NCBI RefSeq assembly: GCF_000016745.1
Contig: NC_009483.1
Span: 600,001-632,000 of the forward strand
Origin: Geotalea uraniireducens Rf4
Lineage (GTDB): Bacteria; Desulfobacterota; Desulfuromonadia; Geobacterales; Geobacteraceae
Length of the DNA: 32,000 bases
Direction: 5' to 3'
Each line of letters begins with the position of its first letter. Position 1 is the stretch's first letter. The notes under the pieces were generated by a model that worked only from the letters and a program-made list of their open reading frames with translations, searched no databases and was not told the origin of the DNA. Positions 7,519 to 26,704 of the stretch are shown piece after piece. Position numbers and translations under genes: made by a program.

Positions 7519-7830
7519 TTATACGGGGTTTACAGGAGGGGCGCGGGCAGTGTGATGCTCAATCGGAATGAAATTAAACTTGCGGATTTCCTGATGGAAA
7601 GATGAGCTGAATGGTGTGGGAACAGCTAAAAAAGGAGCGATTTGGCACGTTACAACGTCAGCATTTACCCTTATCCCCGCTGGCTGGCCAGCCTTTACAG
7701 TTGTTTCGATAATGGCGCGAGGGCGCGGCTTTGGGGAATGGAGCTTCGAGAGATTGGGAACCCTCATCCCCAGGAAGACGAGACACAAGGCTGCCGTAGC
7801 AATAACAGTACACAAGAGTCTCTTGTGCAT
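7519..7830 (-). CDS. Possible small secreted protein (about 103 aa), hypothetical
   Basis: MHKRLLCTVIATAALCLVFLG looks like a signal peptide and AAGGGA lies 8 nt upstream. There is no family signature, and competing ORFs lie on the other strand. Confidence 0.3.
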   Translation of the reverse strand: MHKRLLCTVIATAALCLVFLGMRVPNLSKLHSPKPRPRAIIETTVKAGQPAGIRVNADVVTCQIAPFLAVPTPFSSSFHQEIRKFNFIPIEHHTARAPPVNPV

Positions 7831-9179: not shown

Positions 9180-9192
9180 GGTTTGACCAAAA

Positions 9193-9227
9193 AGCCTCCG
9201 TTCCGAAAGGGACGGGGGCTTTTTTTG
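9193..9227 (+). terminator. Intrinsic terminator after the multihaem gene
   Basis: AGCCTCCGTTCC-gaaa-GGGACGGGGGCT (two G-U pairs) is followed by seven T. Confidence 0.6.
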
Positions 9228-9327
9228 CGTGCAAAAGAGGCTTGGATATTATCGTTCGGTGAGCATCATGACAGGGCGGTGTTTCCCTGCCTTCCCGTTT
9301 CCGGGGGTGGGGCGCCCCTTGTCTCGA

Positions 9328-9356
9328 TTGACTTAATACCGATACATGATAAAAAT
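9328..9356 (+). promoter_or_regulatory. Candidate sigma-70 promoter placing the transcription start at or next to the ccsB ATG
   Basis: TTGACT (9328-9333), a 16-17 nt spacer, then TGaTAAAAAT (9347-9356). ATG 9362 follows within 6 nt and no SD is present. Confidence 0.3.
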
Positions 9357-9361
9357 TATTC

Positions 9362-10675
9362 ATGAATATGCTGAAGATGTTTTTCCTCTCCCGCAAGTTG
9401 GCGCTGTTTCTTCTTGTTGCGATTCTTTCCTCTGTTTTGGTCGCCTCGCTGGTGCCGCAAACCTTTATCACCCCTGCGGCCAAAATGCAAAACTGGCGCG
9501 CCGACAACGAGTGGCTCGTTCCCATTGCGGATGTCTGCGGGCTGAATCATGTCTATACTGCGCCATGGTTTGCCGTTTTCATCGCCCTTGCGTTGGTTTC
9601 GCTCAGCTTGTCGTTAATCGAACAGTTCAGGGCTGCGCTGCGAAGGACATTCAAGGCGGCGCCATTGCCCGAATCCGGCGGAAGCCGGATAAGAGCGACG
9701 GAGCAGAGAATTCCGGCAACCATGAGGCGGCATGGGTATCTGCTGCTGTCGCGTACGGCATCCTGGCGCTTCGTGAAGAATCCGTGGGGGTACTGGGGCA
9801 ATTTCTTGCTTCATGCGGGTATCGTTGCAACCATAGCCGCATCCCTCCTGGTTGCGTTGACCCAGCAGCGCGGCGCGATAATACTTGTCGAAGGCGTACC
9901 CCACCAGACCGGCGAGCCATGGGAGAGCGAAGAACATGGCTTATTGACGGAGAGGCTTTCACTTCCCTATTCGGTGCGCCTCGATCAGCTGAAGCTGGAG
10001 TTCCGAAAGGATAACCATGTTGATCAAGTCGCTTCTGAAATCACCCTTTTCCCTGAAAATGGCGGGGATGTCCGCCGACTCACCGCGGCAATCAATGCAA
10101 ATCTGACCTACCAGGGTAAGCGCATCTATCAGAGCAACGATTATGGCGACGCCTTTACCCTTGAGTTCACTTCAGCCGATGGCGGCACGCACCGGGAAAA
10201 ACTGCTGCTGTTGCATCCGGCGGGCCTTGACAAGGCCGGTTACGGCGATTTTGATTTTCCCTGGTTAAAATACAATTTATCCACCAAATATTATGCCGAT
10301 GCGGACAAGAAACTCATAACCAGTCCCGATCGGCTGCTGGTACTGCGTATTATGGAAAACAATCGTGAACTGGGGCGGATTTCCCTGAAAAATGGAGAAA
10401 GCGGGAGGCTGGGTAACTATCTGGTGCGGCTGACTGCGGTCGAGAAATGGAGCAAGCTCATATTCGTCCATGTGCCGGGGATGCCGCTTGTCTTTATCGG
10501 ATTCATGATGATAGTGCTGGGTATTATGCTTAATTTTTTCACGCCGCCTCGCGAATTTATCGTGGCAAGGGATGGGGACGGGTTTCTCTTTTTCTGGCGT
10601 GCGGAAAAGTTTGCCGACTTCTATGCTGACGAGCATGAAGGCATTCTCAAAAACATCGAAACGGAGCAGGCATGA
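9362..10675 (+). CDS. ccsB: System II cytochrome c biogenesis protein CcsB/ResB
   Basis: 437 aa. N-terminal TM segments, a large soluble central domain and a C-terminal TM match the ResB layout. The stop overlaps the ccsA start (ATGA). Confidence 0.8.
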   Translation: MNMLKMFFLSRKLALFLLVAILSSVLVASLVPQTFITPAAKMQNWRADNEWLVPIADVCGLNHVYTAPWFAVFIALALVSLSLSLIEQFRAALRRTFKAAPLPESGGSRIRATEQRIPATMRRHGYLLLSRTASWRFVKNPWGYWGNFLLHAGIVATIAASLLVALTQQRGAIILVEGVPHQTGEPWESEEHGLLTERLSLPYSVRLDQLKLEFRKDNHVDQVASEITLFPENGGDVRRLTAAINANLTYQGKRIYQSNDYGDAFTLEFTSADGGTHREKLLLLHPAGLDKAGYGDFDFPWLKYNLSTKYYADADKKLITSPDRLLVLRIMENNRELGRISLKNGESGRLGNYLVRLTAVEKWSKLIFVHVPGMPLVFIGFMMIVLGIMLNFFTPPREFIVARDGDGFLFFWRAEKFADFYADEHEGILKNIETEQA

Positions 10676-11502
10676 CAAACGAATCTTTTGCTGTCTATAC
10701 CGGCTTGACGTGGACGGCGGTCATCATATACGTGCTGGCCACCGTGGCAAATACCTCCGGCATTATTTTCGGGCGGTCCGGTTATGAAAAAAACGGCTAT
10801 AAACTTGCTCTGGCCGGCATGGTAGTTCACAGCATACTCATCGCCTATTGGTGGCGTATCGTCGGCCATGGGCCCTACATGGCGCCCAGCGAGGTGCTTT
10901 CATCCGATGCGTGGATCGCCATGTGCCTCTTCCTGATTTTTGTGCGCATCTACCCCAAAATAAAGCCGGTGAGCATAGTCGTCTTTCCCTCGACATTTTT
11001 ACTGTTGGCGCTCAGTATGTTGAGCAATCCCGGAATCCGTACCCTCCCCCCGACCTTCAGAGGCATCTGGCTGGTTATTCATATTGCGCTTTACAAAATA
11101 TCGTTGGCCACCATCATCATCGCTTTTGCCTTTTCAATCTTCTGCCTGCTGAAGAGGAGATACGATTTCGACTGGCTGCAAAGATTGCCCGAGCCCCAGG
11201 CTATCGATGTTTACGCGTATCGGTTTGCCGGTTTCGGGTTCATTTTCTGGACCATAGGGATGCTGGCAGGATCGATCTGGGCGCACCAGTCCTGGGGGCG
11301 TTTCTGGGGGTGGGACCCGGTGGAAATCTGGTCGCTCATCACCTGGCTCTTGTTCGGCATCTATCTGCACCTGAGGCGTTTCTTCCGCTGGCAGGGGGAG
11401 AGGGCCGCCTGGTTCTTCGCTTTTTGCTTCATCATGTCGCTCGTTTCACTTTTCGTCACTTCGCATATGGGTACTTCAATTCACGCGGAGTATTTCAAGT
11501 GA
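10672..11502 (+). CDS. ccsA: System II cytochrome c assembly protein CcsA/ResC (haem handling, WWD domain)
   Basis: Polytopic membrane protein with the Trp-rich motif WGRFWGWDPVEIWSLITW and conserved His residues. Translationally coupled to ccsB. Confidence 0.9.
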   Translation: MTNESFAVYTGLTWTAVIIYVLATVANTSGIIFGRSGYEKNGYKLALAGMVVHSILIAYWWRIVGHGPYMAPSEVLSSDAWIAMCLFLIFVRIYPKIKPVSIVVFPSTFLLLALSMLSNPGIRTLPPTFRGIWLVIHIALYKISLATIIIAFAFSIFCLLKRRYDFDWLQRLPEPQAIDVYAYRFAGFGFIFWTIGMLAGSIWAHQSWGRFWGWDPVEIWSLITWLLFGIYLHLRRFFRWQGERAAWFFAFCFIMSLVSLFVTSHMGTSIHAEYFK

Positions 11503-14256: not shown

Positions 14257-15789
14257 ATGACACGTCTTTTGCCCGTGAGAAATGCTGTTGCTGCGGCGGT
14301 AGCCGGCGCGGCGCTGGCCGGCTGCACGGTAGGCCCTGATTTCCGGCCGCCCGAGGCGCCGCGGACGGACAATTATACATCGACTGCATTGCCGGCGCAG
14401 ACGGCCGCCGCGGAGGGTAATGGCGGCGCAGCGCAGCGCTTCGCCATCGGCCGGGAGATTCCCGGCCAGTGGTGGGCGCTCTTTCATTCCGCGGCCTTGG
14501 ATCGCTTGATCAGTCAGGCCATTGCAGACAGTCCGACCCTGGCGACGATCCAGGCGACGCTCCGTCAGGCGCAGGAAAACCTGCGTGCCAGGACCGGTAC
14601 GGAGTATTCGCCGAGTCTGGACGCAAACTTTTCGGCCGTGCGGCAAAAAATCTCAGGCGTCGCGTTCGGTCAGCCGGATCTTGCCAACAGCACCTTCAGC
14701 CTCTTTAACGCCTCGGTGAAAGTCTCGTACGCACTCGATATTTTCGGCGGCGGACGGCGCGAACTGGAGGCACTGCGTTCCCAGGTCGACTACCAGCGTT
14801 ATCAGCTTGAGGGAGCCTATCTCGCGCTCACCGCCAACATTGTCACCACGGCGGTGAAAGAGGCCTCTTTGCGGGCACAGATCCGGGCGACGCAAAATAT
14901 ATTGGCGAACCAGGAGCAGCAACTGGAAGTGGTCGAACGCCAGTTCCAGCTCGGCGGGGTCGCACGTACCGATGTTCTTGCCCAGCGAACCCGGCTTGCA
15001 CAGACGCGGGCGACCCTCCCTCCCCTGGAGAAGGCGCTCGCCCAGACGCGCCATCTGTTGGCAGTGCTGGCCGGAAGGTTCCCCAGTGATGCGGGGCTTC
15101 CCGAGTTCGACCTGGATGGGTTGCAGTTGCCGCAGGAGCTGCCGGTAAGCCTGCCGTCGGCACTGGTCCGCCAGCGCCCCGACATCCGTGCAGCCGAAGA
15201 ACTGATGCATGCCGCCGGCGCCCAGGTCGGCGTGGCCACGGCAAACCTCTATCCGCAGATCACCATCAGCGGCAGCCTGGGGTCGGAGTCGGGAAGGATT
15301 ACCGACCTGTTCGGCAGCGGGACTTCCATCTGGGGTCTTGGCGCAGGGTTGTTGCAGCCACTTTCCCATGGCGGTGAACTTACCGCCAAGCGCCGCGCCG
15401 CCATTGCCGCTTACGATCAGTCGGCGGCCCAGTATCGCTCCACCGTTTTGCAGGCGTTGCAGAACGTGGCCGATGTGCTGCGGGCACTGGATGATGACGC
15501 CCGTACGCTCAAGGCACAGGCGGATGCCGAAACGTCCGCTCGCGATACCTTCGACCTTACCCGGCAGCAGTTCCAGCTCGGTGCAGTGAACTATCTCTCC
15601 CTTCTCGATGCCGAGCGTCAGTATCAGCAGGCGCAAATCAGCCTGGTGCAGGCGCAGGCCGCGCGCTTTGCCGACACCGCCGCACTGTTCCAGGCGCTTG
15701 GCGGCGGCTGGTGGAACCGCTCGGCGGAGGGCGGAGCAGCCCCTCATCCGCCCTTTGCCCGCCCTCGCATTGAGAATGAGGAAAAATGA
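14257..15789 (+). CDS. RND efflux outer membrane factor lipoprotein (NodT/OprM family)
   Basis: Lipobox ALAGC followed by TVGPDFRPP, the typical NodT N-terminus. The two-repeat OEP architecture runs through to the C-terminus. Confidence 0.9.
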   Translation: MTRLLPVRNAVAAAVAGAALAGCTVGPDFRPPEAPRTDNYTSTALPAQTAAAEGNGGAAQRFAIGREIPGQWWALFHSAALDRLISQAIADSPTLATIQATLRQAQENLRARTGTEYSPSLDANFSAVRQKISGVAFGQPDLANSTFSLFNASVKVSYALDIFGGGRRELEALRSQVDYQRYQLEGAYLALTANIVTTAVKEASLRAQIRATQNILANQEQQLEVVERQFQLGGVARTDVLAQRTRLAQTRATLPPLEKALAQTRHLLAVLAGRFPSDAGLPEFDLDGLQLPQELPVSLPSALVRQRPDIRAAEELMHAAGAQVGVATANLYPQITISGSLGSESGRITDLFGSGTSIWGLGAGLLQPLSHGGELTAKRRAAIAAYDQSAAQYRSTVLQALQNVADVLRALDDDARTLKAQADAETSARDTFDLTRQQFQLGAVNYLSLLDAERQYQQAQISLVQAQAARFADTAALFQALGGGWWNRSAEGGAAPHPPFARPRIENEEK

Positions 15790-15800
15790 AACGCATACAT

Positions 15801-15878
15801 GCGTAGGGGCGCAGGGCCTGCGCCCTGTCGGCAGTACGGATGAACCTCGACAAGGGCGGACGCCGTCCGCCCCTACGC
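15801..15878. repeat. REP-like nested GC-rich palindrome in the OMF-MFP spacer
   Basis: Outer arms GCGTAGGGG (15801-15809) / CCCCTACGC (15870-15878) enclose two internal hairpins, GGGCGCAGG/CCTGCGCCC and GGGCGGAC/GTCCGCCC. Confidence 0.5.
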
Positions 15879-15908
15879 GACGCCAAACCTCACATGGAGA
15901 AGCCTTTG

Positions 15909-17039
15909 ATGACCAAGCGGATGTTACTCATGCTGGCGGCAGTCGCCCTTTTGTTCGGCGGCATTTTCGGCTACCAGGCTTTCCAGGCGCGGATGGCGAA
16001 GAAATCCATGGCTGCCGGCCAGGCGCCGCTCATGACGGTAACCACGATCACGGCCAAGTCTCTCCCCTGGCAGCCTCAACTCAAAGCGGTGGGAAGCCTG
16101 CGTGCCGTGCGCGGCGTCGACGTCACCTGCGAAATCGCCGGCCTGGTGCGGTCGGTGCAGTTCAGGTCGGGGAACGATGTGAAGGCGGGGCAGTTGCTGG
16201 TGCAGCTCAACGCCGATGCCGACGTCGCCTTGTTGCGATCCCTCCGGGCGGCGGCCGATCTGGCAAGTACCGTCTATATCCGCGATATAAAGCAGTTTGC
16301 CGTAAAGGGGGTAAGCCAGGCGACGCTGGACGCCGACGCTGCCGATCTCAAGGTGAAGCAGGCCCAGGTAGCGCAGCAGGAGGCTTTGGTCGACAAAAAG
16401 ATTATTCGCGCCCCCTTTACCGGTCGGCTCGGCATCACAACCGTCAACCCGGGCCAGTACCTGAACCCGGGGGACAAGATCGTCACCCTGCAAGCGCTCG
16501 ATGCAATCTATGCCGATTTTTACCTTCCCCAGCAGGAGCTGGCGAGCATCGCCCTCGGCCAGACGGTGGCCGTCACTACCGACTCCTACCCCGGCCGCAT
16601 CTTCAGCGGCAGGATCACCGCCGTCAACCCGCGGGTGGACCCGGAGACGCGCAATTTCCAGGTAGAGGCGACCATCGCCAATCCCCGTCACGTGCTTTTG
16701 CCGGGTATGTACGTCACGGTCGAGGTCCGGGCCGGAGCCGGGCAAAACTTCCTGACGTTGCCACAGACGGCGGTGACCTTCAACCCATACGGGGAGACCA
16801 TCTATATCGTCGAGGAAAAGGGGCAAAGGCCGGACGGCAAACCGCTCCTGATCGCCAGGCAGACCTTTGTTACCGTAGGCCCCACCCGCGGCGACCAGGT
16901 GGCTATCCTCACCGGGGTGAAGGATGGGGAAGAGGTGGTCACCAGCGGCCAGTTGAAGCTGAAGAACGGCAGTCCGGTGATCGTCGACAACCGGATCCAG
17001 CCAAGTAATAATGCCGCTCCCCGGCCGATGGACGAGTGA
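15909..17039 (+). CDS. RND efflux periplasmic adaptor (membrane fusion protein, HlyD/MdtA-like)
   Basis: N-terminal TM anchor (MLLMLAAVALLFGGIFGY), followed by lipoyl/beta-barrel adaptor sequence features. GGAG lies 9 nt before ATG 15909. ATG 15894 and the ORF-track start at 15840 are alternatives. Confidence 0.9.
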   Translation: MTKRMLLMLAAVALLFGGIFGYQAFQARMAKKSMAAGQAPLMTVTTITAKSLPWQPQLKAVGSLRAVRGVDVTCEIAGLVRSVQFRSGNDVKAGQLLVQLNADADVALLRSLRAAADLASTVYIRDIKQFAVKGVSQATLDADAADLKVKQAQVAQQEALVDKKIIRAPFTGRLGITTVNPGQYLNPGDKIVTLQALDAIYADFYLPQQELASIALGQTVAVTTDSYPGRIFSGRITAVNPRVDPETRNFQVEATIANPRHVLLPGMYVTVEVRAGAGQNFLTLPQTAVTFNPYGETIYIVEEKGQRPDGKPLLIARQTFVTVGPTRGDQVAILTGVKDGEEVVTSGQLKLKNGSPVIVDNRIQPSNNAAPRPMDE

Positions 17040-17054
17040 AAATCCACCACACTT

Positions 17055-17165
17055 CCCCCCCCCTCACTCTAGCCCTCTCCTTTAGGCCCGCAATATGGGT
17101 CCACAAGGGGCGAGGGGACTTTAAAGCTCCCCTCCCTTGATGGGAGGGGGTGGGGGAGGGGGCTC
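17055..17165. repeat. C-run/G-run palindromic element in the MFP-RND spacer
   Basis: CCCTCTCCTTT (17073-17083) pairs imperfectly with AAGGGGCGAGGG (17105-17116). CCCCTCCC (17129-17136) / GGGAGGGG (17142-17149) is a perfect hairpin. The element is flanked by C8 and GGGGGAGGGGG runs. Confidence 0.4.
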
Positions 17166-17237
17166 TGTGTCTGGTTCAAAGATTAAAGCTCTTCTCCGTG
17201 TCTCCGTGGTGATGGGTTATTTGGAATAAGGCACCCT

Positions 17238-20200
17238 ATGCACTTTACCGACATTTTCATACGCCGCCCGGTGCTGGCCACAGTGGTCAGCCTGCTGATC
17301 CTGGTGCTGGGGCTCCGCTCCATGGGGGTGCTCAAGGTCCGCGAGTATCCTGAGACCCAAAATGCGGTCGTTACCGTAGCCACCACCTATACCGGCGCCG
17401 ACCCGGCCCTTGTGGCCGGCTTCATCACTACGCCGCTGGAAAACTCCATTGCACAGGCCAACGGCATCGACTATCTCACTTCGGCGAGCATCCAGAGCCA
17501 GAGCACGATCCAGGCGTACCTGCGCCTCAACTATGACCCGAACAAGGCGCTGACCGAGATCAACACGAAGGTCAACGCCGTGCTCAACCAGTTGCCGAAA
17601 GATACGCAGCAGCCGGTAATCACCGTGGCCATCGGCGAGGCCATCGATTCCATGTACATCGGCTTTTACAGCAAGGTGCTCCCCACCAACAAGATCACCG
17701 ACTATCTGATCCGGGTGGTGCAGCCGAAGCTTCAGGCCGTGGAAGGTGTGCAGACCGCCGAGGTCCTCGGCCAGCGCCGGTTCGCCCTGAGGGCATGGCT
17801 CGATCCGGTAAAAATGGCGGCCTTCGGCGTTACCGCCGGCGACGTGAGCACCGCGCTTGCCAACAACGACTTCATCTCCGCAGTTGGACGCACCAAGGGG
17901 CAGATGGTGACCGTCGACCTTATAGCCACGACGAATCTTCACTCGGTCGACGAGTTCCGAAACATGGTGCTGAAGAGCGCCAACGGCGCCATCGTCCGTC
18001 TCGGCAACGTGGCCAGCGTCACGCTCGGCTCCGAAAACTACGATACTGCGGTCGGTTTCGACGGCGAGAGCGCCGTCTACATCGGCATCAAGGTGGCGCC
18101 GACCGCCAACCTGCTCACGGTAATCGACGGGGTGCGCAAGGTGTTCCCGGTGGTCGAGCAACAGCTACCCGAAGGGCTCTCCGGCCGTATCGTCTACGAC
18201 GCCACAAAGTACGTGAACAGTTCGATTCACGAGGTGATCACTACCCTGCTCGAAGCGCTCGCGATCGTTACCCTGGTGATCTTCCTCGTCCTCGGCTCGT
18301 TGCGGTCGGTGATCATCCCGACCATCGCCATGCCGCTGTCGCTGATCGGCGCATTCTTCATCATGCTGCTCATGGGCTATACCATCAACCTGCTGACTTT
18401 GCTGGCGCTGGTACTGGCGATCGGCCTCGTGGTCGACGATGCGATCATCGTCGTGGAGAACGTGCACCGCCACATGGAAAACGGTATGGCGCCCATGGAG
18501 GCGTCGATTCAGGGTGCACGCGAGCTGGCCGGGCCGATTATCGCCATTTCGGTGGTGCTGGTTGCGGTCTACGTCCCCATCGGCTTCATGGGAGGGCTCA
18601 CCGGTGCGCTCTTCACCGAGTTCGCCTATACCCTGGCCGGGGCGGTGGCGGTTTCGGCGGTCATCGCCCTCACGCTGTCGCCGATGATGTGTTCGCGCTC
18701 CCTCAAGTCGTTCGACCATGGCGCTCAGAGCCGTTTCGTGCAATTCATCGACGGCCGGTTCGCCTTGTTGCGCCGCGGCTACGAACGGCTTCTCGCCGGA
18801 GCCCTCAACTATCTGCCCGTGACCGTCGTCTTTGCCGTGATCATCCTGGCCAGCAACTACTTCCTCTATGCCAACGCCAAGAGCGAGCTGGCGCCCCAGG
18901 AGGACCAGGGCTATTTTCTTTCGCTCATCACTGCCGCCCCAAATGCCACGCTCGAACAGACGCAGCTCAATTCGCGCCAGGTGTACCGGACCTTTGCCGG
19001 CTATCCTGAATGCGACCATGTCTTTCAGCTGGACGGCATCACCGGCCTCAACTCGGGACTCGCCGGTATGGTCCTGAAACCTTGGGAGGAGCGCAAACGC
19101 ACGGTCATGCAGATCTACCCGGACGTGCAGATGCGCCTGTTCGGCATCGCCGGAGTGCGGGCGGTCGCGTTCCAGCCGTCTCCCTTGCCCGGCAGCGGCG
19201 GCGGCCTGCCGGTGCAGTTCGTGGTCGGCACCACCGAACCCTTCGAGCGGTTGAACGAGGTCTCCCAGGCGCTGATGGCCAAGGCCTACGCCAGCGGCAT
19301 GTTCGCTTTCATCGACACCGACCTGAAGATCGATAAGCCGCAAGTTACCGTGGAGATAGATCGCGACAAGGCCGCCCAGCTGGGGCTGACCATGCGAGAC
19401 GTGGGCGACGTGCTGGGAGCGATGCTGGGGGAAGGATACGTCAACTACTTCGACCTGGCCGGCCGCTCCTACAAGGTAATCCCCCAGGTGATGCAGCGGG
19501 AGCGGCTCAACGCCGCGCAGCTGCGGGATTACTACCTTACCACCGCCGGCGGCGTCTCGATCCCGCTCGCAACCATCGCCCAGCTCAAGACGACTGTTGT
19601 GCCGGAGTCCCTCAACCACTTTCAGCAGCTCAACTCGGCGACCATCTCCGGGGTGCCGGTCCCCGGCGTTACCCTGGGCCAGGCCCTGGAGACCCTCAAT
19701 GGAATTGCCAAAGACGTGATGCCGCAAGGGTACGGCATCGATTACGCAGGCCAGTTGCGGCAGTACGTGCAGGAGTCGAGTGCGCTTCTGGTTACCTTCT
19801 TCTTCGCCCTGATCATCATCTTCCTGTCACTGGCCGCGCTGTTCGAAAGCTTCCGCGATCCGTTCACCGTCCTTATCAGCGTGCCCATGTCGATCTGCGG
19901 GGCGATGATCTTCATCAGCCTCGGGGTGGGGGGCGCCAGTCTCAACATCTATACAGAGGTGGGTCTGGTGACGCTGATCGGCCTGATCAGCAAACACGGC
20001 ATACTGATCGTCCAGTTTGCCAACGACCTGCAGCGGGAAGGGAAGGGGAAACGCGAGGCTGTTGAGCTTGCCGCCGCCATCCGCCTGCGGCCGATCCTGA
20101 TGACCACAGCGGCGATGGTGCTGGGGGTGTTGCCGCTGGTGACCGCCTCCGGCGCCGGAGCCGTTGGGCGCTTCAATATGGGGCTGGTGATCATGACCGG

Positions 20201-20318
20201 CATTGCCATCGGCACTCTGTTCACCCTGTTCGTAGTGCCGGCCATGTATATGTTACTCGCGGCGGAGCACGCCGGGCAAAATCCGGCAAAAATACCGGAA
20301 ACGAAAGGAGATCATTGA
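17238..20318 (+). CDS. RND multidrug efflux permease (AcrB/MdtB/MdtC family)
   Basis: 1026 aa with the canonical N-terminus MHFTDIFIRRPVLATVVSLLILVLGL, a 12-TM layout and two large periplasmic loops. Confidence 0.95.
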   Translation: MHFTDIFIRRPVLATVVSLLILVLGLRSMGVLKVREYPETQNAVVTVATTYTGADPALVAGFITTPLENSIAQANGIDYLTSASIQSQSTIQAYLRLNYDPNKALTEINTKVNAVLNQLPKDTQQPVITVAIGEAIDSMYIGFYSKVLPTNKITDYLIRVVQPKLQAVEGVQTAEVLGQRRFALRAWLDPVKMAAFGVTAGDVSTALANNDFISAVGRTKGQMVTVDLIATTNLHSVDEFRNMVLKSANGAIVRLGNVASVTLGSENYDTAVGFDGESAVYIGIKVAPTANLLTVIDGVRKVFPVVEQQLPEGLSGRIVYDATKYVNSSIHEVITTLLEALAIVTLVIFLVLGSLRSVIIPTIAMPLSLIGAFFIMLLMGYTINLLTLLALVLAIGLVVDDAIIVVENVHRHMENGMAPMEASIQGARELAGPIIAISVVLVAVYVPIGFMGGLTGALFTEFAYTLAGAVAVSAVIALTLSPMMCSRSLKSFDHGAQSRFVQFIDGRFALLRRGYERLLAGALNYLPVTVVFAVIILASNYFLYANAKSELAPQEDQGYFLSLITAAPNATLEQTQLNSRQVYRTFAGYPECDHVFQLDGITGLNSGLAGMVLKPWEERKRTVMQIYPDVQMRLFGIAGVRAVAFQPSPLPGSGGGLPVQFVVGTTEPFERLNEVSQALMAKAYASGMFAFIDTDLKIDKPQVTVEIDRDKAAQLGLTMRDVGDVLGAMLGEGYVNYFDLAGRSYKVIPQVMQRERLNAAQLRDYYLTTAGGVSIPLATIAQLKTTVVPESLNHFQQLNSATISGVPVPGVTLGQALETLNGIAKDVMPQGYGIDYAGQLRQYVQESSALLVTFFFALIIIFLSLAALFESFRDPFTVLISVPMSICGAMIFISLGVGGASLNIYTEVGLVTLIGLISKHGILIVQFANDLQREGKGKREAVELAAAIRLRPILMTTAAMVLGVLPLVTASGAGAVGRFNMGLVIMTGIAIGTLFTLFVVPAMYMLLAAEHAGQNPAKIPETKGDH

Positions 20319-20319
20319 C

Positions 20320-21345
20320 ATGAAAAGAGTTATCTTCGGGGAGGCAAGGGTATTCGTGGTCAGCCTGCTTCTGCTCCTGATGCCGGCAATGGTCTTTGCC
20401 CAAGCGGGACAGATAAAGCCGGGCGCGCCGCCGATCGAACAACCGTTGGTCAGTGAAGGCGACTTCGCAGTAAGGCTGGGGTCGGCACTGGCCGTGACAA
20501 CGACCGATGATGAGGTCGAGGCAGAGAGCCGGCTCGGCGAACTGGGCATTGCGCCACGGAACGGGTGGATCGCCGATTACCCGGTTACGCCCGATATTAT
20601 CGTCGAGTTGCAGAATTCGCTGGTTGAGGCTGTGGCGTCCGGCAAGCTGTTGTTGAGCAAGGACGAGGCACATAAGAAGTTGTCCGATGTTGTTGCAGAG
20701 TTCGGCTTGGCACTCAAGCCATATACTGCCGGCGCAATCTACGAACCCACCCCCGCCAGTTGCGAGAATTACCCGAATCCCGCAGTGGTGGAGAAAAGTT
20801 ATACCAGTGAAGGTGCGCCGGTCGTCACGTACTACTGTCCACCGCCGGACTACTACAGCCTGTATGCCTGGGTCCCTTATCCGTTCTGGTGGTCCGATTT
20901 ATGGTTTCCCGGATTTTTTATCCTCCATGATTTCCATAGGGTGGTCCACGTGCATCGGAAAGTGTCGGTCATCACCAACCACTTCAACGACGTCAGAACT
21001 CACCGGGTTTTCCGGGTCGATCCGGTGGAGAGATCCAGGGGGAAAACATTCGCAGGCATAGGTGTGACGCGGCCTAAGGATTATATCCAGACGGGGGTGC
21101 CGAGAGGTGAAAGGACCATTTTCAACGCTCCCCGTGCACTGAAGATGCCCGCCGGCGGAGCTGCTACCCCGCCTGTTCGCGGCGGAGAAAGGGTCAGCCC
21201 GGTCCTTCGCGGGGGGGAAAAGATCGCCCCGGCCCCTCGGGGCGGCGAAAGGATCACCCCTCCTTCCGGTGGTGTAAGGATCAGCCCCCCTTCCGGTGGC
21301 GTAAGGACCAGTCCCCCTTCCGGTGGCGGGAGGGAACGAAGATAG
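20320..21345 (+). CDS. Secreted hypothetical protein with an aromatic-rich core and C-terminal RGGE(R/K)xxP / PPSGGVRxS tandem repeats
   Basis: Signal peptide VFVVSLLLLLMPAMVFAQA. The ATG is 1 nt after the RND stop codon, and AAAGGAG (20304-20310) lies inside the RND 3' end. Nucleotide tandem repeats span about 21170-21335. Confidence 0.7.
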   Translation: MKRVIFGEARVFVVSLLLLLMPAMVFAQAGQIKPGAPPIEQPLVSEGDFAVRLGSALAVTTTDDEVEAESRLGELGIAPRNGWIADYPVTPDIIVELQNSLVEAVASGKLLLSKDEAHKKLSDVVAEFGLALKPYTAGAIYEPTPASCENYPNPAVVEKSYTSEGAPVVTYYCPPPDYYSLYAWVPYPFWWSDLWFPGFFILHDFHRVVHVHRKVSVITNHFNDVRTHRVFRVDPVERSRGKTFAGIGVTRPKDYIQTGVPRGERTIFNAPRALKMPAGGAATPPVRGGERVSPVLRGGEKIAPAPRGGERITPPSGGVRISPPSGGVRTSPPSGGGRERR

Positions 21346-21359
21346 TAGATTTACATCCG

Positions 21360-22157
21360 TTATGCGTGGCGGTCGAGGGCTTCTTTGACGTTGGTGACGA
21401 GGTTGAGGAGGCGCGGACCGATGTCGTCTTCGAGCATGTGCCGACGCAGCTGGAAGGCTGCGCCGACACAGCTGAAGACGAGGATGCGGGAACCGTCGGT
21501 GGGGACGAGGGGGGTGGCAACGGCGTGGACGTCCTTTTTCCAGTCGCCGAGGGAGAGGCAGAACCCCAGTTCCGCATAGTCCTTGAGGGCCTGCTCGATG
21601 CCGGCGTTTATCCTCGGCCAGTCGGCTTCGTTGCGAAGCCGGATTTGCTCCATGAGGCTTGCCCGTTCCGCCTCCGGCAGGGCACAGAGGAGCGCTCGTC
21701 CCATGGAGGTGGTGGCAATGGGTATCTGCGAGCCGACTCCGAGGGTCAGGGTGACCATGGCGCTGCTCCGGTAAGCTTCCACGTAGAGCATGTTGAGCCG
21801 GTCCTGAACGCCGATGGTAACCGAGGCCTGGGCGTATTCGCCCAACTCCTGCATGAAGGGGCGGGCGATGCGACGGACGTCCAGGTTTGCGAGGAATGAG
21901 TAGCCGAGGGCAAGTACGGCTGAGTCGAGATAGTACTTGCCGAACTTCTCCGAGTAACTCAGGTAGCCGAGCTTGGTCAGCGTATAGGTGAGGCGGGAGA
22001 CCGTCGGTTTCGGCAGACCGGTGCGTGCGGCGATCTCCTGGTTGCCGAGAAGCCTGTCTCCCGGCTTGAAGCAGCGCAGTACCTCCAGCCCCCGCTCCAA
22101 GGCGCGGATCGACTGTCGATCGTTCTCTTCACCGCTGGCAGTATTCTCCTTTCCCAT
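21360..22157 (-). CDS. IclR-family transcriptional regulator
   Basis: N-terminal winged HTH (SIRALERGLEVLRCF...NQEIAARTGLPKPTVSRLTYTLTKLGYL) plus a C-terminal IclR effector-binding domain. I prefer ATG 22157 (MGKENTAS) because a palindromic operator lies at 22176-22190, inside the longer ORF-track version. Confidence 0.9.
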   Translation of the reverse strand: MGKENTASGEENDRQSIRALERGLEVLRCFKPGDRLLGNQEIAARTGLPKPTVSRLTYTLTKLGYLSYSEKFGKYYLDSAVLALGYSFLANLDVRRIARPFMQELGEYAQASVTIGVQDRLNMLYVEAYRSSAMVTLTLGVGSQIPIATTSMGRALLCALPEAERASLMEQIRLRNEADWPRINAGIEQALKDYAELGFCLSLGDWKKDVHAVATPLVPTDGSRILVFSCVGAAFQLRRHMLEDDIGPRLLNLVTNVKEALDRHA

Positions 22158-22175
22158 AAACAAACCCCCCCAATG

Positions 22176-22190
22176 TTTCACTCTGCGAAA
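22176..22190. promoter_or_regulatory. Operator-like palindrome 1 (TTTCAC-TCT-GCGAAA)
   Basis: One mismatch to TTTCGC-N3-GCGAAA. It lies 19 nt upstream of the preferred iclR start. The extended flank GCGAAATTGTCGGT resembles site 3. Confidence 0.45.
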
Positions 22191-22250
22191 TTGTCGGTAG
22201 ATTTGCATAAGCGTTAAGAGATGTCAAACAGTATTTACATCGAACATATG

Positions 22251-22265
22251 TTTCGCCGTGCGAAA
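22251..22265. promoter_or_regulatory. Operator-like palindrome 2 (TTTCGC-CGT-GCGAAA)
   Basis: Perfect 6+3+6 inverted repeat in the divergent intergenic region. Confidence 0.5.
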
Positions 22266-22425
22266 TTAATGGCTGACGCCGCCTATTTTTCGGTGTGATT
22301 CCTACGAGCGAAGCCAGAACCATACAGGATGAGATGTATACTGTGATAATTAAAAAAAAATCAGAAAAAATATGTTTACACAATCCGCAGATGGCGCTAT
22401 AAAACTAGTGAATTTAGAAATACAG

Positions 22426-22440
22426 TTTCGCAGAGCGAAA
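22426..22440. promoter_or_regulatory. Operator-like palindrome 3 (TTTCGC-AGA-GCGAAA)
   Basis: Perfect inverted repeat ending 24 nt upstream of the RHH gene ATG. Confidence 0.5.
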
Positions 22441-22463
22441 TTATCGGTGTATGAGGTCATGAC

Positions 22464-22640
22464 ATGGGTGCCAGGAAAAAGAAACCACGTTACAACGTCG
22501 TGTCGTTGCGGATCAGTAATGATGAGAAGCAAGAACTCGACAAGGTCGCCAGGCTGTCAAACCGGAACATCTCCGAAGTTATGCGTGAGGCGGTAGGGCT
22601 CATCCAGGTAAAGCTCGAAAAGGGGGAGCTGTTTCAGTAG
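22464..22640 (+). CDS. Ribbon-helix-helix (CopG/MetJ-like) DNA-binding protein, 58 aa
   Basis: Not in the ORF track because it is under 60 aa. GAGG lies 7 nt before the ATG. The sequence is MGARKKKPRYNVVSLRISNDEKQELDKVARLSNRNISEVMREAVGLIQVKLEKGELFQ: a basic tail, a beta-strand (VVSLRIS) and two helices, the classic RHH pattern. Confidence 0.6.
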   Translation: MGARKKKPRYNVVSLRISNDEKQELDKVARLSNRNISEVMREAVGLIQVKLEKGELFQ

Positions 22641-22725
22641 TCAAGCTGAGCGACATCGGCTGTTATGGCGGGACTCGATTCCTTGGGCCGGTGCGATTAC
22701 TATTCTATGTATGTGGAGAGACAAA

Positions 22726-23082
22726 ATGCTTAAAGCAAAACGCGTGCAAACGGTTGAGACAAGCGAAAAGACCTTGGAACTTCTCGAGATACTGGCGGCC
22801 GGGGGGGAGGGACTTCATATCGGTGCTCTGGCAGACAAGCTGCAGATCAGCAGCAAAAAGGTTCTTCTTCTCCTCGTTACCCTGGAATGCCATGGGATGG
22901 TTACGTGGGACGATCGGAGCAGGAAATACCGGACAGGCGGAAGAAGCGAGGCGTTGGCGCGCCAAATACTGAACCAGCCTGAAGTCAGGAAGACCGATTC
23001 GGCGGCGGTTGTTTCTCAAAAGTCGAGTCAGTCAAAGGTAAGGAGCAAGAGGCAGATTTCCCTGTCGCCTCCCCTGCCTTAA
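22726..23082 (+). CDS. IclR-type winged-HTH-only protein (no effector domain) with a basic, low-complexity tail
   Basis: TLELLEILAAGGEGLHIGALADKLQISSKKVLLLLVTLECHGMVTWD resembles the N-terminal HTH of IclR regulators. GGAGAG lies 5 nt before ATG 22726. The protein ends after about 118 aa. Confidence 0.55.
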   Translation: MLKAKRVQTVETSEKTLELLEILAAGGEGLHIGALADKLQISSKKVLLLLVTLECHGMVTWDDRSRKYRTGGRSEALARQILNQPEVRKTDSAAVVSQKSSQSKVRSKRQISLSPPLP

Positions 23083-23106
23083 GAGAGGAGATGGGAAATG
23101 GCTTCT

Positions 23107-25395
23107 TTACTTGCCGTTTTCTATGACGACCGGCTTCAGTCCCTGTTTTTCCAGCTTCGCCGCCTCGTTCATGGCTGCCTCACGTGTCGGGAAGCTGCCG
23201 GCGGTAAGCAGGGACGTTGGAACGGATACGGATATATTCTTCATGCTTAACTTTATGCCGAGGGCGGCAAGCCGCTCCAGTTCCTTTGCCGCATACTTCC
23301 GATTGACGTAAGACCCGGCATAGACGCTGTACTTTCCTGCTCCGCTTTTGATAATGAGTCCTTTGGCGTTGACGCTGCGCAGCTTGTCAAGCTCTTTCCG
23401 GGCCGACTCCCGATCTGGAAATTCCCCGATGTAGAGACCTAGCATCGGTTCCTTTTTCGTTGGGCCCTTTTTCACCACCGGCGACAGGCCGGCGCGTTGT
23501 ACTTTTTTCTTGGCATTCGCCAATGCCGATTTCACCGTATACTCTCCAACCTTAATCGTGTATTTCCCGGTTGCCGCAGCATTCTCCGCCTTGCCGGCAA
23601 AGACCGTCGCCTGCTCTCCAGCGACCATTCCGGCAGCTTCCTTTTCGCCTTCTTTCGTCTGGGCGCTCACCTTATCGGCAGAGTCCTTCCGGGAAGCCTT
23701 CACTTCTCCTTGCTCTTTTTCAGCTTTTGTCGTGATGCGGCCACCGTTTACCTGCATCTCACTGTCGGGCAGAGCGACCTTTCCGTCGCTGACTGGTGCG
23801 GCCGGCATATCCGTGCTTCCGGGCTTTTTGCTTTCCCCGGCGTCAGTGGACACGGCGCGCTCTGGAGCCGGTGTCGGCATCTTCTCATTCGCGAGATCTG
23901 CCGGATGTGACGTGTCGATATGAACGCCCAGGCGGTCGAGAAGTTTTCCCGTGTCTCGCCAGAGCTTTGTTACCGCATTTGCAAACGTTTCAACCGCATC
24001 CAGCTGTGCATTTCGGGCAGAAATCAGGTCGTTTTCCGCATTGAGAACGTCTTGAACCGTGGTCGTGCCTGCCTTGTGGTTCTTCCGGTACTCATCGAGG
24101 CGCTGCTCGGCGAATTGCAGAGACTTGTCGGCCATCTGCATCTGTAACCGTGCCGACAAAAGCGCCCGCATGTCCGCCTCGACATCGTTACGGATTTTCC
24201 ACGCAAGTGCCTTGACCTGGTTTTGCACCTGTTCTGCCCTGATTTTGCTCTTGCGATAATCGTTTATGGCGCTGGTATTGCCGAGCGGAACGCTGAATAG
24301 CATGCCGACCGACCAGAAACTGCCCGGGCGGTCTCCGATCTGTTGGAAGCTGTTGCCTATGCTGCCTCCGGTTCCGGTAAGACCTCCGCTGGCAGTGACG
24401 GAGAGGTCGGGGAGCGATTGATGCCTTGCGACCCGCTCCTGTAACTGGCTTGAAGTCAGGGTCAATTGCAGCTGCTTCAGGTCTGGCCGGAACTCCAACG
24501 CATCCTTCACCGCCTGATCTTCCGTTTCCTGCGGTTCGAGCCTGGACGGAGGATCGACGGGGATTAATTGAGTTTTCGGTTCCATGCCGATGAGGTAACG
24601 AAGGCTTGCCTCCTGGTCTCTGACGTTTCGTTCTGCTTCGACGAGGTCCTTCCGCCGCTGGGCAATGGCGAATTCCGCATTGGCTATTTCCATGTTTTGG
24701 AGCGGTGCCGGCTTTATCTGGTTCCTTATCTCGTCCAGGAAGTTCTGCGCCGAATTCAAGGCCGTCAGTCTCGACTCCAGGACCTGCCGTAACGCATAGA
24801 GATGATTGTATGAGGTGATGACTGCGAGAACGGTGTCGGAGATGACGAGACGTAATCGTTCCAGGGAGTCCTGATGTGCACTGGCGGCCAACGTGATGCT
24901 CACTTCTGTTGTCTCCTTGCCTGAATTTTTCAGAAGCGGCTGAGTAACGGTGATTCCCACTGACGACTGCCAATCTTTCGTGGATGTCCCGGAGTCTTCG
25001 ACTTCGGCGTTCGTGAAGCCGGTCTGGGTCGATGCGGCGATACTACCCCCTGTCGGGATATACTGAGTCAAACCGATGGAAGCAAGTCCGCTCGTGGTCT
25101 TGAAGAACGGGTCTCCCGGAACGGCCGACACTCCACCGGTGGCCGAGACACTGAAGAAGGGATTATAGAACCCCCTGCTCCTGGCAACGTCCGTCTCAGC
25201 CATTGAGGAATTGAGGGCCTCTACCCGCAAATCGATATTTTTACGGAGCGCCATCTCCACTGCGAATCCCCGCGAAAGGTTTACCTTTTCAGGAACAATG
25301 TCGCAGTGGCCTTTTCCGGCTGCGAGGAAGATAATTCCGAATACGATTGCCCTTAAGGTCTTGGGAACAGGGAGACCCGTTGCATGTTTGGCCAT
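23107..25395 (-). CDS. TolC-family outer membrane channel fused to C-terminal SPOR (peptidoglycan-binding) repeats
   Basis: Residues from about 40 to 500 show the two-repeat OEP/TolC pattern. A low-complexity linker of about 110 aa follows. After it come at least two SPOR-like units (YTIKVGEYTVKSALANAKKKVQRAGL...; LYIGEFPDRESARKELDKLRS...YSVYAGSYVNRKYAAKELERLAALG...; LLTAGSFPTREAAMNEAAKLEKQGL). GGAGGGG precedes ATG 25395. Confidence 0.8.
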   Translation of the reverse strand: MAKHATGLPVPKTLRAIVFGIIFLAAGKGHCDIVPEKVNLSRGFAVEMALRKNIDLRVEALNSSMAETDVARSRGFYNPFFSVSATGGVSAVPGDPFFKTTSGLASIGLTQYIPTGGSIAASTQTGFTNAEVEDSGTSTKDWQSSVGITVTQPLLKNSGKETTEVSITLAASAHQDSLERLRLVISDTVLAVITSYNHLYALRQVLESRLTALNSAQNFLDEIRNQIKPAPLQNMEIANAEFAIAQRRKDLVEAERNVRDQEASLRYLIGMEPKTQLIPVDPPSRLEPQETEDQAVKDALEFRPDLKQLQLTLTSSQLQERVARHQSLPDLSVTASGGLTGTGGSIGNSFQQIGDRPGSFWSVGMLFSVPLGNTSAINDYRKSKIRAEQVQNQVKALAWKIRNDVEADMRALLSARLQMQMADKSLQFAEQRLDEYRKNHKAGTTTVQDVLNAENDLISARNAQLDAVETFANAVTKLWRDTGKLLDRLGVHIDTSHPADLANEKMPTPAPERAVSTDAGESKKPGSTDMPAAPVSDGKVALPDSEMQVNGGRITTKAEKEQGEVKASRKDSADKVSAQTKEGEKEAAGMVAGEQATVFAGKAENAAATGKYTIKVGEYTVKSALANAKKKVQRAGLSPVVKKGPTKKEPMLGLYIGEFPDRESARKELDKLRSVNAKGLIIKSGAGKYSVYAGSYVNRKYAAKELERLAALGIKLSMKNISVSVPTSLLTAGSFPTREAAMNEAAKLEKQGLKPVVIENGK

Positions 25396-25516
25396 AAAAA
25401 ATCCCCTCCAAACCATAAATGGTCTAAAGGGGATTATATCAATTTAATAAGTTATATCAAATTTGCGCGTCGCCTTGTCACTAGAGTGAAGGCGTGTCAA
25501 GGTGCCTCCAGTAAGA

Positions 25517-26065
25517 TCAGTACTGGGAAATGGCGGTGATTTGGGCAGCTGTCAGGGATTTGAGGGAGCCCATGCCGCCTATGTTGTTGTTGATGGCGCT
25601 CTGGGTCGCAGAAGCGGACTTGCCGCGTTTTCCCTGGCCGTGACACCCGGCGCAGTACTGGGCGTAGAGTGCGGCGCCGTCAAGAGCCGGAGCTGGTGCC
25701 GGAGCTGGTGCCGGAGCTGGAGCTGGTGCTGGAGCTGGTGCTGGAGCAGGTGCTGGAGCAGGTGCTGGAGTCGGAGCAGGTTTCGGAGCCGGAGCCGGAG
25801 CAGGTGCCGGAGTCGGTTTCGGGGCCGGAGCCGGTACTGGCGCAGGAGTCGGCCTAGGGGTTCTGCGGCGCTCCCTCTCCTTCTTCTCCTTCTTCTCCTT
25901 CTCTTCCTTCTCCTTCTTCTCTTTCTCTTCCTTCTCCTTCTTCTCCTTCAGCACTTTCTGTATTTTGGTTGCGTAGTTGTCGTCTGCATAGCCGGAAGGG
26001 ATTACCGTTGCTTGTGCGAATGCCAGAGCCAGAAATAATACCGCCATTTTCATCGTTTTTGTCAT
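25517..26065 (-). CDS. Secreted monohaem class I c-type cytochrome on a KE-rich / (Pro-Ala)n tether
   Basis: Signal peptide MKMAVLFLALAFAQA. A Lys/Glu block of about 30 aa follows (KEKKEKEEKEKKEKEE...), then about 60 aa of PAPxP with a run of more than ten consecutive PA dipeptides. The C-terminal domain of about 55 aa has CAGCH and a candidate axial Met (GGMGS). AAGGAG lies 8 nt before the ATG. Confidence 0.85.
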   Translation of the reverse strand: MTKTMKMAVLFLALAFAQATVIPSGYADDNYATKIQKVLKEKKEKEEKEKKEKEEKEKKEKKERERRRTPRPTPAPVPAPAPKPTPAPAPAPAPKPAPTPAPAPAPAPAPAPAPAPAPAPAPAPAPALDGAALYAQYCAGCHGQGKRGKSASATQSAINNNIGGMGSLKSLTAAQITAISQY

Positions 26066-26282
26066 TTTTGTTACTCCTTGTTTTTTGGTTTTGTCATCTT
26101 TGAAACTTTGTTGCTGCTATGTACTTCCTGATGTTACTTTGCTCGTGATCTTGGTGATCAGTTTATGCTGCCTGTTTGCCCTCCAAGTGAATTCACGAGA
26201 CCGGATATCAATGCAATCCTGCCGATTCCATCTGCTTGTGTACCTCCTTTGAGTGATCTTCGTGTCGCAGCTCCCTGGGCAC

Positions 26283-26400
26283 AAAAAAAGCCGGGTCGCC
26301 GATATCAGGTGATATTCGGCGACCCGGCTGTCTTCATGAGACCCTATAGGCTTTCCGTCCCATCCTCACGGATGGTTTAGTATTATCGTTTTCCCTGTTT
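26283..26400 (-). promoter_or_regulatory. GEMM-I-like (cyclic dinucleotide) riboswitch unit 1 with intrinsic terminator, proximal to the cytochrome gene
   Basis: On the minus strand, AAACC-AUCC-GUGA-GGAU-GG-GACGGAAAGCC (26349-26378) resembles the P2 hairpin and junction of c-di-GMP-I aptamers. The terminator is AGCCGGGUCGCCGA...UCGGCGACCCGGCU plus U7 (26283-26329). Confidence 0.6.
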
Positions 26401-26486
26401 CCATGTGTTGCTGATCGTTACCCTAACGCAATACTGCCTTTGTGCACCTCCTTTGCGTGATCTTCGTGTCGCAGCTCCCTGGGCAC

Positions 26487-26604
26487 AAAAAAAGCCGGGT
26501 CGCCGATATCAGGTGATATTCGGCGACCCGGCTGTCTTCATGAGACCCTGTAGGCTTTCCGTCCCATCCTCGCGGATGGTTTAGTATTATCGTCTTCCCC
26601 GTTT
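26487..26604 (-). promoter_or_regulatory. GEMM-I-like riboswitch unit 2 with intrinsic terminator, distal copy
   Basis: Same core at 26553-26582 but with a GCGA loop (still GNRA). An identical terminator lies at 26487-26533. The offset from unit 1 is 204 nt. Confidence 0.6.
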
Positions 26605-26658
26605 CAATGCTTCTATGTGTCGGTGATGATCACCCTACCTCAAAAACACGCTCGGATA

Positions 26659-26674
26659 TGTGATTTTGATCACA
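26659..26674. promoter_or_regulatory. CRP-type palindrome TGTGA-N6-TCACA
   Basis: TGTGATTTTGATCACA is a perfect match to the CRP-family half-sites. It lies in the divergent region between the riboswitch/cytochrome transcript and yihY. A second palindrome, GGTGATgATCACC, is at 26622-26634. Confidence 0.4.
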
Positions 26675-26704
26675 TTTTAGCCATGTTTCGATTATGATTG
26701 TCTA

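Follow-up and report, generated by a model that had tools for sequence, protein, structure and literature searches.

The GEMM-Ib (3',3'-cyclic AMP-GMP, or 3',3'-cGAMP) riboswitches of Geobacter were reportedly described by Kellenberger and by Nelson in 2015, and G. sulfurreducens has 17 GEMM-I riboswitches, several of them in tandem. PgcA is an extracellular triheme cytochrome under the control of a cGAMP riboswitch, and its monohaem domains are tethered by (PT)n linkers (PMC11520253, PMC5732950). Zacharoff et al. noted a homologue with PAx repeats in G. uraniireducens and one with a single haem in G. metallireducens (PMC5732950). Here we analyzed positions 21360-26704 of a 32,000-nucleotide stretch of the genome of Geotalea (Geobacter) uraniireducens Rf4; the whole stretch is referred to below as the window. 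On its minus strand, a CRP/FNR-type palindrome is followed by two riboswitch aptamers, a gene for a PgcA-like cytochrome, a gap of 121 nucleotides, and a gene for a TolC-family outer-membrane factor that ends in two SPOR domains (TolC-SPOR). An earlier note on this DNA had listed the aptamers, the cytochrome, TolC-SPOR, a ribbon-helix-helix (RHH) protein, two IclR-type genes, a repeated palindrome, and the CRP-type site. That inventory was right, including the length of the gap, since the public gene calls likewise start TolC-SPOR at 25395. The region is probably best explained as two adjacent genes for envelope proteins, each with a transcript of its own, that make up a pair conserved in the Geobacteraceae, next to an unrelated regulator cluster. 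The riboswitch-cytochrome half of this arrangement is already known from the G. metallireducens orthologue Gmet_1191 and its riboswitch Gm1191, which are part of the cGAMP regulon described for Geobacter. What is new is the conserved pairing of this half with a clade of orphan TolC proteins, often fused to SPOR domains; this pairing is not described in the literature searched, in which no TolC-SPOR fusion or TolC-cytochrome link in Geobacter was found.

The pairing was evident from a comparison of 23 distinct loci, all from Geobacteraceae-like genomes, that were collected around members of the TolC clade of the window protein. A pair was counted when a cytochrome consisting of a signal peptide, a charged segment, a Pro repeat, and a haem domain was encoded within 6 kb of the TolC-clade gene, and 19 of the 23 loci contained one. 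Co-conservation, which the earlier note had proposed as a check, was thus strongly positive. The two genes are in tandem with the cytochrome gene upstream in 12 loci (the window, L001-L004, L010, L013-L015, L019, L021, and L105), divergent in two (L011 and L016), and convergent in five, being adjacent in three of these (L008, L009, and L106) and separated by four glycosylation-type genes in the others (L007 and L107). Three further loci (L006, L012, and L104) end too early for the pair to be judged. The orthologues in G. metallireducens are Gmet_1191 for the cytochrome and Gmet_1190 for TolC. A search from the side of the haem domain recovered 13 metagenome contigs with the same tandem pair; most of the contigs without a TolC gene were too short, and in the rest the domain formed the end of FN3-repeat or Cys-repeat proteins. 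The pair remains intact while its flanks are reshuffled, and at least five unrelated contexts, in three orientations, were found around it, among them BrkB and IclR genes in the window and L001; RecBCD and GltX genes in L003, L014, and L021; genes for large unknown proteins and CorA in G. metallireducens; and GtrA, GT2, and PMT genes in Oryzomonas- and Geomonas-type loci. Survival of the linkage through inversion and change of context argues for a functional connection, and its occurrence in different orientations indicates that shared transcription is not what is conserved. Because the pair stays together through these rearrangements, the channel is probably the functional partner of the cytochrome, and on balance we lean toward a functional link of some kind between the two.

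The earlier note had seen no terminator-like hairpin between the two genes and had considered a single riboswitch-controlled transcript plausible. Neither point was borne out, since the gap contains a 16-bp hairpin followed by TTTTTT (25435-25395, minus strand), which is terminator-like for RNA coming from the cytochrome gene, and a sequence scan identified a near-consensus sigma-70 promoter for TolC-SPOR (TTGATA-16-TATAAT with an upstream TG, 11/12; 25433-25460, minus strand). The 127-nucleotide stretch that spans the gap (25390-25516) folds with z = -4.7 relative to shuffled sequences, and the right arm of the hairpin holds the ribosome-binding site of the TolC gene, GGAGGGG. A transcript beginning approximately 7 nucleotides after the -10 box would be without the left arm, and its predicted fold is no more stable than that of random sequence (z = -0.3). 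Read-through RNA from the cytochrome gene would thus be stopped or translationally silenced, and RNA from the TolC promoter would be translated. Similar signals are found elsewhere in the family: canonical GC-rich terminators with U-runs directly follow the stop codon of the cytochrome gene in L003, L004, L010, L014, L015, L019, and L021 (the G. metallireducens example is GAGCCCTCCCCTCCCCGGGGAGGGCTTTTTT), weaker hairpins with weak U-tails are found at this place in L001, L002, and L013, and -10-like boxes precede the TolC start in the orthologous tandem loci inspected. With a terminator and a promoter between the genes both here and in orthologous loci, two transcripts are predicted rather than one, and in the seven loci with divergent or convergent genes the pair cannot share a transcript at all. 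If the riboswitches, the cytochrome gene, and the TolC-SPOR gene were nevertheless one operon gated by a cyclic dinucleotide, the duct would be made together with its cargo. The two genes are on the same strand only 121 nucleotides apart, and tandem is the most frequent of the arrangements (12 of 19 loci). The hairpin in the window, with 6 GC pairs of 16, is AU-rich and could be leaky, and in one G. metallireducens data set Gmet_1190 and Gmet_1191 move in the same direction, by 0.84 and 1.06 log2, which is compatible with read-through. However, the gap hairpin with its U-run and the 11/12 promoter, the strong terminators in seven orthologous loci, and the seven non-tandem loci, which exclude co-transcription as a conserved property, make the single operon improbable.

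Control of the cytochrome gene by a cyclic dinucleotide, as the earlier note had proposed, was supported. Both aptamers (unit 1, 26519-26595, 44.9 bits, E = 7.4e-6; unit 2, 26315-26391, 46.7 bits, E = 2.7e-6; minus strand) match the full length of the c-di-GMP-I (cyclic di-GMP) covariance model RF01051 and exceed its gathering score of 35. Each is followed by its own intrinsic terminator (26487-26532, z = -5.0, and 26283-26328, z = -6.1; minus strand) with a stem of 17-18 bp and U7, the left arm of which is the 3' strand of the aptamer, and the minimum-energy fold of each unit without ligand is the terminator hairpin. Both units therefore have the terminator-type expression platform, competing with the aptamer, that is expected of an ON switch. 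The units are copies of a duplicated 170-nucleotide sequence with 96% identity, spaced by 204 nucleotides, and the leader consists of two complete ON switches in series that arose by a recent duplication. Without ligand each unit would fold into its own terminator, while a bound cyclic dinucleotide, most likely 3',3'-cGAMP, would hold the 3' strand of the aptamer so that the terminator could not form; since both units must be ON, the response should be sharper. In the family, one to three GEMM-Ib units precede the cytochrome gene wherever upstream DNA is available, except in L008, in which no unit reached the gathering score upstream of the cytochrome gene, and a private terminator accompanies all 27 family aptamers examined. 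A seven-codon open reading frame (MESAGLH; 26208-26231, minus strand) with a strong AAAGGAGGT site lies directly after the second riboswitch terminator of the window, and its sequence resembling a ribosome-binding site recurs after the first unit, there without an ATG. L009 has a GEMM-Ib aptamer and terminator on the downstream side of the cytochrome gene (7614-7688, minus strand). This element faces the 3' end of the convergent TolC gene directly and has no gene under its control; it would be either left over from a PMT block that has been lost or arranged in antisense.

The assignment of the ligand depends on a single position. An A is present at position 11 of the Rfam model in both aptamers of the window and in all 25 aptamers of related loci (27/27), and in our own mapping this position corresponds to G20 of Vc2, because it pairs next to the G-C pair at positions 12-13. 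The G20-equivalent position contacts the ligand and separates binders of c-di-GMP (G) from binders of c-AMP-GMP (A) (PMC9481103). Furthermore, Table S2 of PMC12285248 gives the orthologous G. metallireducens riboswitch Gm1191 as cGAMP-responsive both by prediction and by test, and Gmet_1191 is up-regulated in a strain with more cGAMP (PMC12285248). Both aptamers therefore most likely belong to the GEMM-Ib (cGAMP-type) subclass, although selectivity is judged from one nucleotide and an orthologue. Alternatively, the aptamers might sense c-di-GMP, or both dinucleotides. They do match the c-di-GMP-I model, at least one Geobacter GEMM-I riboswitch (OmcST) answers both ligands (PMC6456294), and some predicted cGAMP genes rose in a strain with high c-di-GMP. 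Yet the A is invariant at the very position that discriminates the ligands, and the orthologous riboswitch was listed as responsive to cGAMP, which makes this alternative highly improbable.

Upstream of the riboswitches is a perfect CRP/FNR-type palindrome, TGTGA-N6-TCACA (TGTGATTTTGATCACA, 26659-26674), as the earlier note had reported, centered approximately 41 nucleotides upstream of the inferred transcription start. It is the sole such site in the window when one mismatch is allowed, but a one-mismatch site was also present in 39 of 100 shuffled sequences, and therefore its significance rests on its position and on its conservation in L001, which keeps it in the same place as CGTGATCGAAATCACA. 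A putative -10 element, TAGGGT, is located at 26632-26637 (minus strand), the GGTAGGGT of this promoter is kept in L001 as well, and the spacing between the palindrome and the -10 element would fit a class II activator-dependent promoter. In genera other than the lineage of the window and L001, an A-tract and a consensus TTGACA -35 element are found where the CRP-type site would be. Since only the syntenic relative L001 keeps the site, the additional control by an activator looks specific to this lineage, and in Geotalea the promoter of the cytochrome unit may depend on it. No CRP-family gene was found when one was looked for in the window. The leader thus resembles the known Geobacter GEMM-Ib riboswitches (Hallberg 2019, PMC6456294), and particularly Gm1191, in its Rfam family, its signature A, its terminator-type ON platform, its tandem form, and its place upstream of an extracellular-type cytochrome, the downstream gene being orthologous to Gmet_1191. 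It differs from them in that the CRP/FNR-type site replaces a strong, constitutive-looking promoter with an A-tract and TTGACA, and in that its two units are a recent duplication with 96% identity.

The cytochrome gene (25517-26065, minus strand) encodes a PgcA-like monohaem cytochrome c of 182 amino acids (PF13442, E = 1.8e-7), which confirms the tethered cytochrome that the earlier note had described. Residues 1-27 form a signal peptide without a lipobox, residues 29-68 a Lys/Glu-rich single helix that is continuous in the AlphaFold2 model (predicted local distance difference test, pLDDT, 88-97), residues 70-126 a (Pro-Ala)n linker modeled as an extended coil, and residues 127-182 the haem domain with CAGCH at 138-142 and Met165. 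An alignment of 15 family members showed the same architecture: the signal peptide ends in a conserved G-Y-A motif without a lipobox, a charged segment lies between it and the Pro-X repeat, and the C-terminal haem domain comprises 54-57 residues with C138, C141, H142, and M165 (numbering of the window protein) invariant. The Pro-X repeat is 49-90 residues long in 14 of the 15 members and 23 residues in L008; that of the window has 57 residues and is mostly Pro-Ala. Assuming 3.1 A per residue, the linker of the window would be about 18 nm long if fully extended and the strings of the family 15-28 nm, and the helix would add about 6 nm. The profile of the haem domain matched the crystal structures of PgcA domains I and II (8qj6, E = 3.1e-16; 8qjg, E = 8.5e-16; hmmsearch), and Foldseek aligned the modeled domain with 8QJ6 at a root-mean-square deviation of 0.8 A over 57 columns with 49% identity and a TM-score of 0.79. 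By sequence, fold, CxxCH motif, and distal Met, the domain is thus of the PgcA monohaem type. The product would be a Sec-exported protein of about 16 kDa in which a stiff Lys/Glu helix and a (Pro-Ala)n string lead to a single His/Met haem domain of the PgcA type, and judging from sequence and model it is a one-haem version, or single-domain relative, of the extracellular "haems on a string" PgcA.

It is a relative rather than an orthologue of PgcA, having only one of the three haem domains and neither the lipid anchor nor the N-terminal domain. PgcA of G. sulfurreducens (GSU1761; PMC5732950, PMC10570954, PMC11520253; PDB 8QJ6, 8QJG, 8QK0) shares with it the small His/Met haem domain, a proline-repeat linker, and control by a cGAMP riboswitch. 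In contrast, PgcA has three haem domains, a lipoprotein Cys, and a large N-terminal domain; the window protein has one haem domain and neither of the other two features, and GSU1761-like orthology is therefore not indicated. Its linker is (PA)n instead of (PT)n and is preceded by a Lys/Glu helix of 40 residues, and its gene adjoins a TolC gene, a neighbor that has not been reported for pgcA. Gura_0706, which was named in papers as the G. uraniireducens PgcA homologue with PAx repeats, may be the gene of the window cytochrome. In some loci, two cytochrome paralogues are found in tandem before the TolC gene (L003 4751-5866, L014 4698-5762, and L015 4764-5789), one with a short Asp/Arg-rich segment and the other with a long Lys/Glu helix, and where both types are present it is always the latter that adjoins TolC. 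The PgcA-type haem domain also ends lipoproteins with four to six FN3-like repeats (L034 907-2865, L045 2500-4668, and L046 1125-3677) and Cys-rich-repeat proteins (L031, L041, and L049), so that it appears to be a module that supplies the terminal haem of several kinds of extracellular scaffold.

The TolC-SPOR gene (23107-25395, minus strand) encodes 762 amino acids, identical (100%) to ABQ24747.1 / WP_011937472.1, with three stretches matching PF02321 (E = 4.4e-44) and two matching PF05036 (E = 5.3e-17). The fusion that the earlier note had recognized is supported by the Pfam matches for both parts and by the AlphaFold2 model, in which a TolC fold (residues 37-490, 23926-25287) is followed by a disordered linker (residues 504-609, 23569-23886) and two SPOR units (residues 612-683, 23347-23562, and residues 689-759, 23119-23331; all minus strand), each with the beta-alpha-beta-beta-alpha-beta fold at a pLDDT of about 85. 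E. coli and Klebsiella TolC were the best structural matches (Foldseek, E = 1.6e-18 to 1.1e-15, among the top five hits), and with two OEP repeats and the TolC fold the protein belongs to the TolC family. It falls short of the curated subfamilies, scoring 126.7 bits against a cut-off of 225 for TIGR01844 (type I secretion TolC) and 71.8 against 210 for TIGR01845 (NodT), and the profile of its clade matched no PDB sequence at 1e-5. Like the family members E. coli TolC, OprM, and CusC, it has two OEP repeats, and its fold matches solved TolC structures (Foldseek, E of 1e-15 to 1e-18); the window protein differs from them as an orphan without an adjacent pump or adaptor gene, in scoring below the NCBIfam TolC and NodT cut-offs, and in its C-terminal linker of 105 residues with two SPOR domains. 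About half of the orthologues in the clade, Gmet_1190 among them, lack the SPOR part. Where present, the tandem C-terminal SPOR domains should tie the channel to peptidoglycan. Wall-binding SPOR proteins are already part of the cGAMP regulon, since according to the PMC6456294 supplement the G. sulfurreducens operon GSU0181-0183, which encodes an L,D-transpeptidase lipoprotein with a SPOR domain, is controlled by cGAMP riboswitches in tandem, and its expression drops about 16-fold in the gacA mutant. The first TolC repeat of the model contains four beta-strands (74 amino acids; residues 80-153, 24937-25158) and the second contains two (37 amino acids), which suggests that this clade may have an extra beta-hairpin in the first repeat, a segment with a pLDDT of 50-74. 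TolC-SPOR was also considered as the exit duct of the neighboring RND pump, and this was rejected: the RND operon (14257-20318) encodes its own NodT-type factor (434 bits), which is 22% identical to TolC-SPOR, as well as an adaptor and AcrB.

A standing duct with a conditional cargo or partner would fit a TolC gene with its own promoter and a cytochrome that is made only with the dinucleotide. The hairpin and U-run would stop or silence read-through, the orphan channel would be made independently, the cargo would be made only when cGAMP rises, and the channel would most likely be the route of the cytochrome to the outer membrane, or its docking point there. The more specific reading that this TolC clade is a dedicated outer-membrane passage or anchor for PgcA-type "haem-on-a-string" cytochromes is tentative and, taken by itself, doubtful. 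The proline string and the N-terminal helix would then let the 6-kDa haem domain be threaded through the duct or held at it. E. coli TolC is about 14 nm long with a lumen of about 3.5 nm, and a 6-kDa domain on a string of 15-28 nm could in principle reach through or along such a duct. The arrangement resembles the porin-cytochrome conduits (Pcc/Ext, MtrCAB) in that the gene for an outer-membrane channel is paired with a cytochrome gene in an electroactive bacterium. However, those conduits consist of a 20- to 26-strand beta-barrel porin enclosing membrane-spanning multihaem cytochromes, whereas the window encodes a TolC-type alpha/beta duct and a cytochrome whose single haem cannot form a haem wire through the membrane.

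Several observations, besides the possible leakiness of the hairpin, the parallel change of the G. metallireducens genes, and the basis of the cGAMP assignment mentioned above, weigh against a functional pair of this kind. TolC channels need a membrane-fusion or inner-membrane partner to open. No gene for a membrane-fusion protein or an inner-membrane transporter lies beside the TolC gene in any locus examined, and this weakens the case for export through the duct. L005 has a TolC-SPOR gene with no cytochrome gene within 6 kb on each side, PgcA-type haem domains are also found on other scaffolds away from any TolC, and since all members of the family are close relatives, inheritance of gene order may explain part of the linkage. 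Most of these points, together with the export of PgcA by G. sulfurreducens, in which no TolC gene lies beside pgcA, the small hypothetical genes, or the other riboswitch genes inspected in the eLife supplement, would also suit a simpler explanation, namely that the genes are neighbors only. Efflux or type I secretion systems with genes at other sites would then use TolC-SPOR as a general exit duct, the cytochrome would act independently of it, and the linkage would be inherited gene order throughout. This would not account readily for a pair that stays intact in at least five contexts and three orientations, or for the Oryzomonas- and Geomonas-type clusters, which gain riboswitch-controlled glycosylation genes yet keep both TolC-SPOR and the cytochrome, and we consider it rather unlikely. 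It is also conceivable that the cytochrome never leaves the periplasm and carries electrons over a long reach there, and that TolC-SPOR is a wall-anchored docking post instead of a duct. Without a lipobox the protein would be soluble in the periplasm after cleavage of the signal peptide, its helix and linker (about 6 nm and 18 nm) are of the order of the periplasmic width, and PgcA can take the place of the periplasmic cytochromes PpcA-E when it is trapped in this compartment, as cited in PMC11520253. However, the known PgcA is extracellular (PMC5732950) and no binding surface is in evidence for such a post, so that this possibility appears quite improbable.

In some genera, the pair is accompanied by genes for glycosylation. 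A complete-looking O-mannosylation set, consisting of GtrA, an unknown protein of about 445 amino acids, a GT2 enzyme, and a PMT-family transferase, lies between TolC-SPOR and a cytochrome with a PT linker (L107 12325-18991, from Oryzomonas sagensis; also L016 595-5440, L006 8057-13484, L007 2779-8456, and L104 7101-10190). In L107 and L006 the PMT gene has a GEMM-Ib aptamer immediately upstream of it, and in L016 it comes straight after the cytochrome gene that the riboswitch controls. These positions suggest that O-glycosylation of (PT)n linkers is under the control of cGAMP. The window itself has a (PA)n linker, and the open reading frames scanned there included no PMT gene.

The three regulator genes beside the pair were found in the layout given by the earlier note, with a gene for an RHH protein (22464-22640, plus strand; PF01402, E = 1.7e-5) and one for an IclR-type protein with only a helix-turn-helix (HTH) domain (22711-23082, plus strand; PF09339, E = 1.2e-6) converging on the TolC gene and divergent from a full-length IclR-family regulator (21360-22208, minus strand; the public gene calls have a 265-amino-acid start at 22157). 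The three copies of the palindrome TTTCGCnnnGCGAAAT in and next to the IclR/RHH divergent region (22176-22191, 22251-22266, and 22426-22441) were likewise confirmed. The palindrome is found nowhere else in the window; its 6 strand matches compare with 1.43 expected, and 2 of 100 shuffled sequences reached 6. The copies are probably operators of the IclR/RHH regulator pair. A role for these regulators in the module, however, was considered and rejected, since the cluster and its palindromes are common only to the window and the syntenic relative L001, being absent from all other contexts of the pair, and no copy of the palindrome is near the promoters of the cytochrome or TolC genes. The cluster is treated here as a self-contained neighbor. 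Elsewhere in the window, a secreted protein of 341 amino acids with C-terminal GGxR(I/V)SPP repeats is encoded directly after the AcrB stop codon (20320-21345, plus strand); it has no Pfam or NCBIfam match and is kept in L001. At 8028-11502 (plus strand), ResB-like and CcsA-like genes for cytochrome c assembly come after the gene for a multihaem cytochrome that has the Geobacter CxxxxCH/CxxCH motif.

If the link between the cytochrome and the channel is only inherited gene order, nothing sets this locus apart within the known cGAMP riboswitch regulon. If the reading of the TolC clade as a passage or anchor is true, it would be a route of cytochrome export or display unlike both type II secretion and the porin-cytochrome complexes, coupled in some genera to cGAMP-controlled O-mannosylation of the (PT)n string. 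Recombinant PgcA was not recognized by the type II system of Shewanella (PMC11520253), and for the crossing of the outer membrane by PgcA-type cytochromes in Geobacter, the orphan TolC beside the one-haem members is a concrete candidate. The cGAMP "surface lifestyle" regulon would thereby gain a wall-anchored TolC and, in some genera, a riboswitch-controlled glycosylation set.

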